Assembly (NCBI GenBank): GCA_963830365.1
Contig: CAWHMU010000011.1
Coordinates: 1-13,780, forward strand
DNA: 13,780 nucleotides
DNA from: an uncultured Chlamydiae bacterium
Lineage (GTDB): Bacteria; Chlamydiota; Chlamydiia; Chlamydiales; Parachlamydiaceae
Direction: 5' to 3'
How positions within the stretch are numbered: the stretch's first letter is position 1; every line of letters begins with the position of its first letter. Positions 4,475-13,780 of the stretch are shown piece after piece. The notes beneath the pieces were generated by a model that was given only the letters and a program-made list of their open reading frames with translations, made no database searches and had not been told where the DNA came from. A program made the position numbers and the translations under genes.

Positions 4475-4843
4475 CGGATCGTGCGAACGGCGTTATATCC
4501 TTTTTGCACCCACAGATGCAAGAAAGGGCCGGGCATGGACGTCCCTTTTAAAGTTCATCCGGTTTTGTAGGACCAACCCGGAAAAGGGTGCATAGAAATG
4601 AGGGATTGCAGGTAACACATCGGAGCAAAAATAACAGGATATTAGGATGGACATGGTGAAAGATGTAAATTTTAGTTTCCCAACTATGTGATTTATGCAA
4701 ATCTTGGGTGATCATCCAATTTTCATATCCAGACCATCGTAATATCCTGTTTTTTTGCCTGCTCTTTTCTCTATGTAAGTCCTGATAAAGCGGAAGAACC
4801 TCTTTTAAAATCCCCATTTTAGCTCCAGTTCCCCATCACGCCG

Positions 4844-5254
4844 TTTTAATTAAAAAGATTTGATAGGTAGCACGGGTATTGGTTTAACTTCGGCCAGCAT
4901 GCATTTGCTGCTATGCCCCGTCAAGGGGCGGCCATATTTGTAGCCCACGGTGTAGCGTCAACGACGCAAACCGTGGGTCACCATCCCAAAGCAATCCAGC
5001 CCCAGAGGGGCGTTATAATTCCTTCACTGCTATCAGCAAGGATGAAAATCAAAAAACAATTATAACGCCCCCTCGGGGCTGTTTTTCTTTCTTATGATAA
5101 CCATGGTTTGTGCCCTTGGCACTACACCATGGGCTACAAATATGGCCGCCCCTTGACGGGGCTCAGCAAAAAAGACATCATGCCAAATCGGACGCGCGCT
5201 CTGGCACGGCGAGTTTATATCACTGAATAGCCTATCAAAACTTTTTAATCAAAA
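4844..5254. repeat. 24-bp inverted repeat pair bracketing REPIN-like element 1
   Basis: TTTTAATTAAAAAGATTTGATAGG (4844-4867) vs CCTATCAAAACTTTTTAATCAAAA (5231-5254), 22/24 complementary. No outer target duplication seen. Confidence 0.65.
4915..5162. repeat. REP-doublet (REPIN-like) element 1
   Basis: Outer arms 4915-4955 and 5122-5162 are 40/41 complementary. Inner arms 4997-5020 and 5058-5081 are 21/24. Each half is a GCCCC-n-GGGGC mini-hairpin, then GTAG plus a branched hairpin, then a second GCCCC-n-GGGGC. Confidence 0.85.
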
Positions 5255-5527
5255 GACCCTGGTTTCCCCATTCATAAACCCGTATGACCCTTCTTCGTAA
5301 TCAGCACTCGATATCGCTAGCTAAATTGCTTCCGTTGTGTCTCCGCGTCTTCTCTACGTTTAGACAAGTGCATTGGTTATTAAGGCATTACAATATTTCC
5401 CGTTTTTTTTATGATCATATATTCCAGAAGATTCAACGAAAAGAAGCGGCACAAGGCGCAAAGAAAAACAAGGAGCACGTTGCCTAGCGAGAAATAAAGT
5501 GAAAGGCAACACCATGAAAATAAAAGT

Positions 5528-6061
5528 GGTTCATCCGACAAATGAGGACCTCGACTCGTAGAGATAATAAAGCTGGTTTAAAATATTCCATATTCAAGAA
5601 GTCGTATACTTGTCTTTTCGACGAAGGTTTGCAAGTAGGCTAAAATGTGCACTTACCGCGGCAGCGGTCAACAGATTTCAGCCCCGCGTGCAGGTGCTTC
5701 CTGCGCCGGAACGTGGGGTTCGCATAAATTTAAAAGGCAACCGCGGCAGCGGTGTAAGAGGTCTACAAAGCTCTTACACCGCTGCCGCGGTTTTGATATT
5801 ATGTGTATTCTGACCCCACGTTCCGGCGCAGGAAGCGCCTGCACGCGGGGCTGAAATCTGCTGACCGCTACCGCGGTATAAGGCACTATCCAACAGCTTA
5901 ATTTGAGCTACATAAGTACTTTTGCAATTTTCTCAAACGAGGATTGTAGAAGGTTTACTCAAGATCTCAAGCAGTTCACAAAGTTCTGATAATAAAGGTT
6001 CATAAAAATCTGAAGACTTAATACTTTTACCTGCTAAAGGTCCTCATTTGTCGGATGAACC
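5528..6061. mobile_element. Non-autonomous MITE, 534 bp, with 24-bp perfect TIRs and an 8-bp target site duplication
   Basis: TIR GGTTCATCCGACAAATGAGGACCT (5528-5551) and its exact reverse complement (6038-6061), flanked by ATAAAAGT at 5520-5527 and 6062-6069. No transposase ORF inside. Confidence 0.9.
5654..5878. repeat. REP-doublet (REPIN-like) element 2, nested in the MITE
   Basis: Outer arms 5654-5719 and 5813-5878 are 63/66 complementary. Inner arms 5739-5760 and 5771-5792 are a perfect 22 bp with a 10-nt loop. Four copies of the mini-palindrome ACCGC-GGYA-GCGGT, two per strand. Confidence 0.88.
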
Positions 6062-6230
6062 ATAAAAGTTTTAAAATTTGTTATTTAGGAGAGGACGAGA
6101 CGCAACGAAAATCTAAAATGGAGAAAGGGCACGGCCTGAGAGTATGACGGTTTGATTTTGCTGGTTATATACCACGCGCGGTATACAAGCATCTTGTTGA
6201 TGAACTGTCTAATATGGCTGCTTGGATATC

Positions 6231-6269
6231 ATAATAAAACCACAGAGCCCGCTGGTAGGGCTCTGTGGT
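6231..6269 (-). terminator. Rho-independent terminator of the OMP gene
   Basis: Perfect 12-bp stem ACCACAGAGCCC / GGGCTCTGTGGT (6239-6250 / 6258-6269) with a 7-nt loop, followed by TTTATTAT on the minus strand, 22 nt after the stop at 6292. Confidence 0.8.
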
Positions 6270-6291
6270 ACATTTTTAGAGCAATTACTGA

Positions 6292-6978: not shown

Positions 6979-7045
6979 ATTACTTCGTCCTTAAAAAGAG
7001 TTTTCTTTAGACATCCAAAAGGGAAAAATTGCATTGATTTCCATG

Positions 7046-7211
7046 TATACCAGGATCTAGTGAGAATTTGACATCTTGGACTGCGCGAAAGCTCTCGCGG
7101 TTGCAGGATCGTAAGCCACCCAATATTAGCGAATATGGGGTGGCTTACGATCCTGCAATCCCGAGGTTTTGGCGCGACCAATATGTCAAATCCTCACTAG
7201 ATTCTGGTATA
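7046..7211. mobile_element. Palindromic MITE-like element, 166 bp, TATAC...GTATA ends
   Basis: Terminal arms TATACCAGGATCTAGTGAGAATTTGACAT / ATGTCAAATCCTCACTAGATTCTGGTATA (27/29) and an inner perfect 21-bp stem (7101-7121 / 7138-7158). TA at both ends fits a TA target duplication. Confidence 0.8.
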
Positions 7212-7263
7212 TATGACATATAGGCATTTTAATGCCAAACCTTTAAACCAGATGCTGCATACT

Positions 7264-9560: not shown

Positions 9561-9609
9561 TCAAGGCGCAGCGTTTGGTGTTAAGCCACGTTCTTTTTGG
9601 TCTGAAAGG

Positions 9610-9772
9610 TATACTGCAGGCGGCATCAAAGTTCGATTTATGGATGTAGATGTTCGCGCCTGCACGCTGTTAAAAAAACCTGACATACATATTTGTAGGC
9701 TCGTTTTTGAAACAGCGTGCAGGCGCGAAAAGAAGCGTTCATAAATCGAGCTCTGCTGCCGGCTGCAGTATA
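9610..9772. mobile_element. Palindromic MITE-like element, 163 bp, TATAC...GTATA ends
   Basis: Terminal arms TATACTGCAGGCGGCATCAAAGTTCGATTTATGGATG / CGTTCATAAATCGAGCTCTGCTGCCGGCTGCAGTATA (31/37) and an inner perfect 19-bp stem (9653-9671 / 9711-9729). Confidence 0.78.
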
Positions 9773-9847
9773 GCCTACGCTGTGCGTTTGAAGTATGCCA
9801 AAATCCTTCCTTAAATCAGCATAAAACTCACCCATAAGAAACTATAG

Positions 9848-11878: not shown

Positions 11879-12308
11879 TGTATATTTTCTTGGCACCCCA
11901 TGTGGAATAACATCCCTAAATATGTCATTGCTATTATTAAGGTTACTACATATAAGCCCTGTCTTGATAAATGTTTAAATACATAAATAATATAAACATC
12001 AAGCCTAGCACATACAATGTATCACTGATATGATCATAATAATCTCCAAATTTGGTACACATATTATATTTTCTTGCCATGTGCCCATCTAAACAATCGA
12101 AGAAATATCCTATTATTCCATAAAATAAAAATAATGCCTTCCTGTTCTGCAGCAAATAATATATCGATGCTATCCTCGCTATTATACCAAATGTGGTTAC
12201 TATGTTTGGTGTTATACCTATGCTCCTTAATGCAGGAGAAATTTTATCCGATATCTCTATTAATATATCATCTATCGGGTTTTCGAATGCTCTTGGGATT
12301 TTCCTCAT
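11830..12308 (-). pseudogene. CDP-alcohol phosphatidyltransferase, giant-virus-like, frameshifted and apparently 3'-truncated
   Basis: Full signature D-x2-DG-x2-AR...G-x3-D-x3-D (DCLDGHMARKYNMCTKFGDYYDHISD) in ORF 12308-11946. A -1 frame change near 11970-11995 continues as HLSRQGLYVVTLIIAMTYLGMLFHMGCQENIHQCDGEACSEF until a stop at 11830-11832. Confidence 0.8.
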
Positions 12309-12481
12309 CTATCAAAACTGGTATGTATATGTATCAGTGCTAATACAATAAGAATCTAAAATGGTTATGTATAGAATAGACCAAGCAAATGGGATATTAG
12401 ATAGATATATTATATATTTATCCAATATTAAATTTCAATTAATTGTCCTATTTTGTAAATCATTAATACAAAATCCAATGC

Positions 12482-12490
12482 AAAATTTGA
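12482..12490 (+). promoter_or_regulatory. Variant of the Mimiviridae early promoter motif (AAAATTGA)
   Basis: AAAATTTGA ~80 nt upstream of ATG 12571. One base longer than the canonical motif and in AT-rich DNA, so weak. Confidence 0.3.
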
Positions 12491-12570
12491 TCATTATTTT
12501 TATATTTTTATGCGGTTAATATCAGATTATAGAATAATATCAAACTATAGATATCATTCTAAAACCATAA

Positions 12571-13317
12571 ATGTGGGCTATAATTAAAGCTGTTGCTGTT
12601 GGCGCCGTAGTCATCTCTGTAATCTATTATAATAGAAATAAGAGTTACATCATAACTGAGACCATTCCCAGCTATGCTATGTCATTATATACATCAGCAA
12701 GACTCCTTGTGCGCCATAGAAACAAGAAACCAGTAGACATTAATATTATGGATCAACCGCTAAAATACAGCATCCTGTCAGTCATTGGTTATAATGATAA
12801 ACACCATAATGACTGCACAGATATCTTCAAGGTTTTGTTTTCAAATTCTGATAATTCTTTCGGAGTATCCGACGAAATTATGGATACTATGTATATGTAC
12901 GATAATTTCGTCATCTATTACTCTTTTATGGCTAATCAACTGGAAAATAGCTCTATTGATATCCAAAATTATGCCATTATTATCCCTGCAAAAGCTATCA
13001 CCAATTTTACAATGCCTGCTTATACCGCTAAGGACCTCGAACTTGCCAATGGAGTGGGCTGGGAAGATATCTGGGACCAGGTTATTATCAAAACAGATGA
13101 AGATATACATGAAGTTGAAGATTGTAATGTAATTGATACCCTTGTTATGCACGCTGGACCCCTGAAAGATTATTATGAATCTGTTATGCCCGACTATCTA
13201 TCAATGACTAACTGGAAAACTATAAGAAATTATATCAACCATGATCCCATCCTACTGGAACCCAACAGCACTTTCTATATTACTAGCTCCCTAGGACAAA
13301 CTAAACGATTCAGTTAA
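12571..13317 (+). CDS. Hypothetical protein with N-terminal membrane anchor, NCLDV-like
   Basis: 248-aa ORF in ~30% GC DNA with a hydrophobic N-terminus (AIIKAVAVGAVVISVIYY) and Ile/Asn/Tyr/Asp-rich composition. No SD; start context ATAAATG. Confidence 0.85.
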   Translation: MWAIIKAVAVGAVVISVIYYNRNKSYIITETIPSYAMSLYTSARLLVRHRNKKPVDINIMDQPLKYSILSVIGYNDKHHNDCTDIFKVLFSNSDNSFGVSDEIMDTMYMYDNFVIYYSFMANQLENSSIDIQNYAIIIPAKAITNFTMPAYTAKDLELANGVGWEDIWDQVIIKTDEDIHEVEDCNVIDTLVMHAGPLKDYYESVMPDYLSMTNWKTIRNYINHDPILLEPNSTFYITSSLGQTKRFS

Positions 13318-13453
13318 TAAATATAAAAAATACATATTTAACACTGTATTTAATTCATTATTTGTTTTATTTTTTTATTATATATTTTGACCTAAATACT
13401 AATTTTTAGATCCAAATATATTATGATAGCGTTAATGAACTGTTTCAGAGGTA

Positions 13454-13780
13454 TCATTTTGAATCTGTGATTTTATTTAGAAGATCACATATGCTGTCCC
13501 GATTAATATCAATATTTAAATCTAATATTGTCCTAATAATATCAGCAAAAGATTTGCCTATATATGATAATATCCCACTATCAGATGATGAATAACAATA
13601 TATATGTCCGAATTTATCTGATTTAGGGTTTAGATTTATATGTATGCTCCCAGAACCGTTGTCTACACTATTACAATCAAAAAATATTTCATACCAATCA
13701 TATAAACCTACATTGGGAATTCGTTCCATTGCGTCATTATCTTCGTAATCCAAGATGGCTTCGTCACTAAGTAAAAATAA
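13454..13780 (-). CDS. SMI1/KNR4 (SUKH)-like protein, 5'-partial
   Basis: Frame is open to the window edge (LFLLSDEAI precedes the TTG at 13753). The pattern GSIHINLNP..DKFGHIY...SYIGKSFADII resembles the SUKH C-terminal strands and helix. Confidence 0.6.
   Translation of the reverse strand, partial: LFLLSDEAILDYEDNDAMERIPNVGLYDWYEIFFDCNSVDNGSGSIHINLNPKSDKFGHIYCYSSSDSGILSYIGKSFADIIRTILDLNIDINRDSICDLLNKITDSK

Follow-up and report, generated by a model that had tools for sequence, protein, structure and literature searches.

The two repeat doublets in the window, that is, the whole 13,780-nt stretch of DNA analyzed here, are likely to be non-autonomous, REPIN-like substrates of TnpA-Y1 enzymes of subclass 1.2. 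Each doublet is a gene-less inverted pair of a unit built from three hairpins, and it is likely to be these enzymes' own mobile substrate because the same unit brackets the genes of this IS200-like enzyme branch in many phyla. The original prediction that the doublets represent two specificity variants of one class of non-autonomous element is supported by the kept spacing of the unit and by Y1 genes that differ by clade.

Layout and folding of the two doublets

Two inverted three-hairpin doublets ∼490 bp apart had been described, and this was borne out by the position of every part named, all of which were found in the 13,780-nt window, with a gap of ∼490 nt between doublet 1 and doublet 2. 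The unit follows a plan of a small hairpin (H1), ∼12 nt, AG, a long hairpin (H2), ∼21 nt, and a second small hairpin (H3), and is oriented with H3 toward the gene or toward the doublet center. The doublets and the MITEs in which they lie are as follows.

4837 to 5261, no strand: MITE with doublet 1, 425 bp, terminal inverted repeats of ∼33 bp, CAGGG-type ends
4915 to 5162: doublet 1, two inverted units with H3 facing inward and a 55-nt center
4915 to 5011, plus strand: element 1 left unit; H1 4915 to 4929, GTAG foot 4940 to 4943, H2 4944 to 4977, H3 4999 to 5011; 14 nt between H1 and H2, ending GTAG, and a 21-nt A-rich linker between H2 and H3
5012 to 5066, no strand: element 1 central spacer, 55 nt
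5067 to 5162, minus strand: element 1 right unit, inverted; H1 5148 to 5162, GTAG foot 5134 to 5137, H2 ∼5100 to 5133, H3 5067 to 5079
5520 to 5527 (left) and 6062 to 6069 (right): perfect 8-bp target-site duplication, ATAAAAGT
5528 to 6061, no strand: MITE with doublet 2, 534 bp, ISL3-derived, 24-bp perfect terminal inverted repeats at 5528 to 5551 and 6038 to 6061
5655 to 5877: doublet 2, two inverted units with H3 facing inward and a 24-nt center
5655 to 5753, plus strand: element 2 left unit; H1 5655 to 5668, TCAG foot 5678 to 5681, H2 5682 to 5718, H3 5740 to 5753; 13 nt between H1 and H2, ending TCAG, and a 21-nt linker between H2 and H3
5754 to 5777, no strand: element 2 central spacer, 24 nt
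5778 to 5877, minus strand: element 2 right unit, inverted; H1 5864 to 5877, TCAG foot 5851 to 5854, H2 5814 to 5850, H3 5778 to 5791

H2, which had been described as branched, forms a single extended hairpin interrupted by an internal loop, and its outer pair is broken in the element 1 right unit (∼5100 to 5133). The sequence GCGNNAGC is contained exactly in both H1 and H3 of element 2. Whole doublets folded far more stably than shuffled sequences (z of −18 and −24), and the four halves, each folded separately as unit-strand DNA, gave z values of −5.0, −4.6, −2.0, and −4.6. Three separate hairpins appeared in the minimum-energy fold of only one of the four halves, and in both element 2 halves this fold paired H1 with H3.

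An alignment was made of 50 of 57 non-chlamydial units taken from transposase flanks (L019, L037, L045, L052, L053, L068, and L073 were excluded as mis-parsed, distant, or oddly spaced), and a covariance model, R1, was built from those 50. Double changes were identified in 17 of the 18 stem pairs, 93% of cells pair, and none of 500 shuffles was as good. Using R1, the four window halves ranked first and on the predicted strands, with E values between 1e−8 and 1e−4 (element 1 left unit, 9.5e−9 at 4908 to 5019; element 1 right unit, 4.2e−7; element 2 left unit, 1e−4; element 2 right unit, 7.9e−6), the next match in the window having an E value of 0.14. Direct identity between element 1 and element 2 was 57%, the top of the shuffled range of 43 to 57%. 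Despite this value, one covariance model matches all four halves, and calling the doublets sequence-unrelated was too strong.

Partner Y1 enzymes and the units that flank them

Close relatives of the host's proteins bear Chlamydiae or Parachlamydiaceae labels, which points to an environmental chlamydia. The genome assembly (2.73 Mb, 82% complete) contained nine Y1_Tnp matches, five being domains of four short genes and four being long genes of class 2.1 type. The short-gene domains with the Y---Q--HH motif are, judged by motif, members of TnpA-Y1 subclass 1.2 of Quentin et al. 2018, for which Table 1 of that paper gives DH[IV]H, WQ, and Y---Q--HH (PMC6006769). YI[QE]NQxxHH was present in four of the five domains, and the fifth, the N-terminal domain of a fusion, keeps the Y, with D replacing Q. 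The partner proteins had HUH and WQ motifs, an intact catalytic tyrosine, and a size of 144 to 150 aa per domain, and alignment of the subclass 1.2 domains identified a conserved C-terminal tail of ∼25 aa. The four short genes are divergent and single copy, their domains sharing 33 to 39% identity with the C33 protein, and subclass 1.2 matches numbered one to six per genome. All four short proteins scored above the cut-off for NCBIfam NF033573 (IS200/IS605 transposase); with NF047646 (REP_Tyr_transpos), two scored 35.5 and 57 bits against a cut-off of 80 and the other two had no match. The likeness to published subclass 1.2 lies in these motifs, a length of ∼148 aa, and a low, divergent copy number. 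Where subclass 1.2 is listed by Quentin et al. 2018 (PMC6006769), the entry carries no REPs or terminal structure, whereas most members examined here have an inverted three-hairpin unit on both sides, and a tandem two-domain form exists. The units contradict the published description of subclass 1.2, not the class assignment.

G000:C45:169619-170494: two-domain Y1 gene, 291 aa, tandem subclass 1.2 (L004/L151; P0003)
G000:C20:48.5 kb, C20:43.5 kb, C28:30.3 kb, and C17:28.0 kb: long class 2.1-type Y1 genes (YxHLNP), L006 to L009
L122:1410-2040 (G230:C261): deleted gene cassette, a 626-bp element with CAGGG ends, a 10-bp duplication, and element 2 units

The four long genes of class 2.1 type have short, TIRYT-like terminal repeats, and their loci gave neither three-hairpin units (0 of 4) nor an R1 match.

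The relation between unit and enzyme was analyzed at the best 80 of 594 relatives across phyla and at 29 loci from phylum-mates; loci with <200 nt of flank (four and three, respectively) were removed, leaving 76 and 26. Using a loose descriptor that was written after the flanks were viewed and that itself imposes the AG, gene-facing units were identified on both sides of 48 of the 76 cross-phylum subclass 1.2 loci and 15 of the 26 phylum-mate loci, the unit being missing on at least one side in 28 of the 76. Cross-phylum controls gave 1, 0, and 0 such loci in shuffles, 3 on the opposite strand, and 0 of 62 in distal DNA, and phylum-mate controls gave 0 in shuffles, 0 on the opposite strand, and 0 of 20 in distal DNA. 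Unit-flanked genes were carried by Planctomycetota, Acidobacteriota, Verrucomicrobiota, Chlamydiota, and other phyla. The class is not restricted to one lineage; in many phyla, TnpA-Y1 subclass 1.2 genes are usually flanked by it, and the descriptor search found the same spacing across them, as the original prediction had expected of other copies.

A strict set of 124 units from 109 loci was also compiled. The foot was ATAG in 43, TTAG in 28, GTAG in 27, AAAG in 9, and other in 17; H2 was usually 20 nt long with a conserved A eight bases before its end, and the median distance from unit to gene was ∼20 nt. Upstream and downstream units had the first 7 nt of H2 in common at 32 of 46 loci, compared with 2.3 in shuffled pairings. 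Across 73 family genomes, gene and units occurred together in 34, units only in 11, gene only in 0, and neither in 28, so that 11 of the 45 unit-bearing genomes had no gene match; these unit counts are lower bounds (best 57 candidates), and kin are non-independent. In a tree of 61 domains, unit type followed protein clade (element 2-like, third type, CCYAGGG, and two-domain), and within the two-domain clade G323 again carried element 1-type units.

A cognate Y1 gene within 200 bp was found for element 1 at C45 and for element 2 only in G230. Each variant was predicted to have its own Y1 HUH clade, and this agrees with the location of element 1 units at the two-domain Y1 gene and of element 2 units at a gene of another clade in a relative. 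The C45 gene is bracketed by 2+2 element 1 units that are 76 to 79% identical to element 1 of the window. A search at E 1e−30 identified 40 proteins including the query, nearly all of them full length. Both HUH motifs and both tyrosines were invariant in 19 aligned two-domain proteins, and mostly D or E stood in the N-terminal domain at the position of the C-terminal domain's conserved Q. The predicted fold (pLDDT 90) matched ISDra2 and IS608 TnpA, and the protein may represent the TnpA dimer in a single chain. A metagenome scan with the two-domain protein gave three weak loci. At the two-domain locus L153, whose gene is cut off by the end of the contig, the descriptor found no unit and R1 located units upstream; L154 is a divergent two-domain gene with a different unit type. 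A group II intron fragment lies beside a truncated element 1 unit at L151:3725-3841 (G000:C45, ∼171.8 kb).

Other variants of the three-hairpin unit flank the C33 and C23 genes. At the C27 gene (L001, G000:C27:48.2-49.3 kb), the flanking unit has the foot, H2, and H3, with a pyrimidine tract replacing H1; its flanks gave no R1 match, and ∼27 related loci are dispersed in the genome. The element 2 partner gene was not found in the 82%-complete assembly, in which the nearest resident units, those of C33, are only 60 to 63% alike and are not dispersed (one locus). Units around the G230 Y1 gene are 81 to 84% identical to the element 2 left unit and 86 to 87% identical to the right unit. By this comparison, the element 2 partner gene is either missing from the assembly or lost from the genome. 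The third and commonest unit type (172 units) likewise has no resident gene in the assembly. G230 carries an intact gene with element 2 units and a 94 to 95% identical copy from which the middle of the gene is deleted, and on alignment the deleted copy reads as a direct intermediate between gene cassette and doublet. The target of the G230 626-bp element is similar to the spacer between H1 and H2 of element 1, read as its reverse complement.

Genomic copies and MITE wrappers

BLAST searches of the genome identified 38 loci like the element 1 region and 40 like the element 2 region. The strict descriptor gave 178 units of several sequence types, and similarity extension gave 75 element 1 units, 17 element 2 units, and the 172 of the third type. 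No midpoint of the 287 typed units lay inside an ORF of ≥150 aa, although such ORFs make up 76.5% of the genome. Element 1 was present as 18 doublets at dispersed sites, as single units, and as an array of 14 head-to-tail copies on C16; units also occurred as direct repeats and arrays. The C16 array (G000:C16:73753-79013) consists of 14 element 1 doublets with a period of ∼360 to 400 nt, and in an array with a 67-nt period (C18:20-1307) each H3 doubles as the next H1. A CRISPR-like array was considered for C16 and rejected, repeats and spacers both being near-identical. Formation of doublets in place by fold-back of local DNA was rejected as a general route because outward complementarity was mostly 0 to 10 nt (longer in a few) and the centers are homologous across loci. 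Element 1 DNA was not found in the genomes searched among 299 other genomes of the phylum (best two candidates or fewer scored per genome). The REPIN-type arrangement, two inverted repeats within ∼130 bp that are dispersed, intergenic, and diverse, was found here.

The doublets had been recognized in the original inventory of repeats, which missed the larger elements with terminal inverted repeats that enclose them. Around doublet 1, the flanking duplication is imperfect in the window, and a perfect duplication of 9 bp was identified at the C38 copy. No parent transposase was found for this MITE, its end being present in 22 copies in the genome, none tied to a transposase. From its CAGGG terminus and 9- to 10-bp duplications the wrapper may be ISAs1-like, and the genome carries PF13808 elements. 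The ends of the doublet 2 MITE match a decayed ISL3 at G000:C45:81.3-82.7 kb (PF01610 match). ISL3 elements make 8-bp AT-rich target duplications, and perfect 8-bp duplications flanked three of the six doublet-bearing copies measured. The third unit type lies in another ISL3-type wrapper (21 copies, 10 with perfect duplications), and three separate wrapper families carry gene-less doublets in one genome. At least 12 intact ISL3 transposase frames were found. A terminal repeat was present within 300 nt on at least one side of six of the seven element 2 doublets and 30 of the 48 third-type doublets. Wrapper copies that contain no doublet look like deletions rather than preinsertion sites, since they retain one H1 or break at a short microhomology. 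On the evidence of the target-site duplications, the near-identical copies of both window doublets appear to owe their recent spread to DDE-type MITE wrappers. As in other DDE MITEs, terminal inverted repeats and 8- to 10-bp target duplications surround a noncoding core; the difference lies in the cargo, a gene-less three-hairpin doublet. The intergenic region at 4475 to 6290 is largely stacked repeats, with two more repeat families (∼24 and 28 loci) directly upstream of the first MITE at 4540 to 4800.

An alternative that we consider unlikely is that the units are what is left of Y1 elements that were formerly active, that the Y1 enzymes have ceased to move them, and that they now gain copies only through slippage, tandem duplication, and carriage by DDE MITEs. 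It would be compatible with both window doublets lying inside MITEs, with the terminal repeats near 6/7 element 2 and 30/48 third-type doublets, with the perfect 8-bp duplications at 3/6 and 10/21 wrappers alongside the intact ISL3 transposase frames, and with the partner genes of two unit types not being in the assembly. Against this, terminal repeats are lacking near 13 of the 18 dispersed element 1 doublets, the outer flanks show no relation among the 11 doublets compared (0.46 versus 0.44 for shuffled sequence), and the gene matching element 1 is intact. Among 13 element 1 doublets, H2 stems and H3 were 94% conserved, whereas linkers had drifted to 61% and centers to 58% (shuffled baseline for linkers and centers, ∼47 to 50%) at nearly fixed length, the centers mostly 53 to 59 nt long and diverged in sequence. 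Conservation of the stems amid drift of the linkers points to continuing selection on the unit.

Nature of the unit, related systems, and proposed mechanism

Triloops on the unit strand were of the GNA type in 68 of 90 H1 and 80 of 86 H3 hairpins, the reverse-complement loop type occurring in two and none, respectively, and GNRA tetraloops were rare (1 of 29 in H1 and 8 of 33 in H3). According to the data given in PMC13037366, DNA mini-hairpins of the GNA and GNNA types are exceptionally stable, and GCGAAAGC made as RNA has a melting temperature of just 39°C, far below that of its DNA counterpart. Element 1 loops fit the stable-DNA mini-hairpin type less well than element 2 loops. Given the GNA loops on the unit strand and this DNA-specific stability, the loop types favor single-stranded DNA as the active form; an effect at the RNA level could coexist.

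It is very unlikely that the unit is instead a structured RNA (Acido-Lenti-1) or a transcript-end element regulating the transposase gene, with dispersed copies acting on RNA. RF01687 (Acido-Lenti-1; gathering cut-off, 37 bits) scored above gathering at 15 places in 9 of 20 tested loci, and its strand is the reverse complement of H1-H2, that is, of the strand bearing the GNA loops. Acido-Lenti-1 is rated "probably" RNA in Table 1 of Weinberg 2010 (PMC2864571), and a 2026 preprint, in the part cited, calls its function unknown. The units are intergenic and ∼20 nt from gene ends, as an RNA reading would allow; they are also inverted on both sides of the gene, and GNRA loops are rare, which argue against it. 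Covariation does not distinguish RNA from single-stranded DNA. The 46-nt two-hairpin Rfam model corresponds to the reverse complement of H1-spacer-H2 in its short-H2 form, and differs from the unit in being an sRNA of unknown function without H3 and on the other strand. RF01687 passes in short-H2 homologues, and the window units are of the long-H2 form; it had no match to the window units at E values up to 1, and the other unit types of this genome matched below the cut-off, the best score being 35.7 bits (150 of 661 candidates scored). An Rfam scan of the window gave only subthreshold miRNA-type matches to long palindromes, which were rejected.

The original suggestion that the class was possibly uncharacterized in this lineage holds in that no paper linking subclass 1.2 to three-hairpin units was found (the GTAG families in Figure 1 of PMC3733652 may include H2 alone, and part of the unit could be mentioned in additional files 4 and 5 of that paper or in the motif comments of PMC2864571, Additional file 1), and fails in that the H1-H2 half was already in Rfam as RF01687, on the opposite strand. 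The results text of Di Nocera 2013 describes no three-hairpin unit.

The feature probably works like a REPIN-RAYT system and lies outside the described RAYT groups. Inverted hairpin repeats at a Y1 HUH gene, dispersed intergenic doublets, tandem arrays, several gene-repeat pairs per genome, and a tetranucleotide ending in AG at the 5′ foot of the main hairpin are common to both. The enzyme here is of class 1 (Y---Q), whereas that of REPIN-RAYT systems (Group 2/3) is of class 2 (Y---NP), and the unit spans ∼80 to 110 nt with three hairpins at fixed spacing rather than a single 20- to 40-nt palindrome. In REP systems, single-strand cleavage occurs at C|T chosen by the foot, which is GT[AG]G; in the strict set GTAG was found in only 27 of 124 units, and in the window it is the foot of element 1, that of element 2 being TCAG. 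According to the passages cited from the RAREFAN preprint (10.1101/2022.05.22.493013), such repeats are confined to two of the five RAYT families, Groups 2 and 3. With these findings, REPIN-like systems reach beyond class 2 RAYTs to the family's IS200 side, which bears on the origin of domesticated REP enzymes from insertion sequences, and one genome supplies matched enzyme-unit pairs together with a natural single-chain two-domain enzyme. Repeats can also gain copies on DDE MITEs, so copy-number arguments for RAYT activity are confounded. A precedent for such hitch-hiking, in the portion of the literature cited, is the copying of Neisseria RAYTs by an insertion sequence in trans.

With IS608 and ISDra2 (IS200/IS605), the enzymes have in common the fold and a hairpin with a 5′ foot sequence. 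In IS200/IS605 elements both ends are read on one strand, whereas the units here are inverted and include two additional small hairpins, and the genes do not occur as multiple near-identical copies. The least probable of the readings considered, that gene and two units form an ordinary autonomous IS200-like insertion sequence with the units as its ends and the doublets as MITE-like deletion products, would accommodate the NCBIfam scores (IS200/IS605 transposase above cut-off, RAYT below), the internal deletion in G230, and neighboring gene pairs in two genomes (G271 and G245), and is opposed by the strand specificity of IS200/IS605 transposition (as covered in PMC8266576) set against inverted units, by short-Y1 domains only 33 to 39% identical to the C33 protein, by units in direct repeats and arrays, and by the low copy number and 36% intragenomic identity reported for subclass 1.2 (Quentin 2018, PMC6006769).

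For the preferred reading, in which the doublets are substrates of subclass 1.2 enzymes, the following steps are proposed. The enzyme would bind H2 together with its NTAG foot in exposed single-stranded DNA, a binding and cleavage model known from IS608 TnpA and TnpA-REP and taken from the relevant part of PMC8266576. Its tyrosine would nick at corresponding sites within or next to H1 and H3, and strand transfer would follow. Equivalent sites at H1 and H3 are suggested by the fixed spacing, the likeness of H1 to H3, the shared-hairpin array, and the single-hairpin relics; the array and the relics with exactly one small hairpin are equally explained by slippage between the H1 and H3 repeats, and the relics also by palindrome collapse. 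Doublets would originate when the gene between two units is lost and would then spread in that form, and the window copies would last have moved as MITE cargo, likely via DDE transposases acting in trans. A guide role for the foot is borrowed, by analogy, from other families, since a covariation scan of foot bases −4 and −3 found no partner position (best z, 2.3); signals at position −5 were stronger but inconsistent between sides. Searches for filled versus empty sites (52 candidate sites in one; among the matches listed in the other) gave no clean pair and no cut site, the empty-site candidates being palindrome collapses, single-hairpin relics, or array self-matches. One unit, located in an ISL3 end at C14, has the appearance of a precise insertion, but the match beyond the unit on which this rests is 10 nt long.

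A more specific model, which we put forward tentatively and think doubtful, is that H1 and H3 represent two copies of one recombination site defined by its structure, and that an enzyme docked on H2 excises a 65- to 100-nt strand as a circle, which inserts at lone mini-hairpins or builds arrays. If true, this would add a third HUH targeting logic to those of IS608 and REP and would be the activity that mainly underlies the Acido-Lenti-1 "RNA," and the element 1 two-domain enzyme would be a single-chain asymmetric TnpA dimer.

Further features of the window were recorded. A symmetric nested palindrome at 7040 to 7216 has ∼38 related loci, three relatives of which pass the strict descriptor; it gave no R1 match, and no partner gene was identified for it. 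A palindromic repeat with CACAGAG-like heptamers at 1765 to 1960 has ∼32 genome loci. The segment at 11880 to 13780 has a GC content of 27 to 38% and no match elsewhere in the genome, encodes a CDP-alcohol phosphatidyltransferase and two ORFs without a Pfam match, and is possibly foreign DNA or a chimeric contig end. An inverted repeat with 70-nt arms at 9605 to 9775 is present at ∼5 loci, and one such copy, at G000:C16:47.9 kb, splits the left flank of a third-type MITE.
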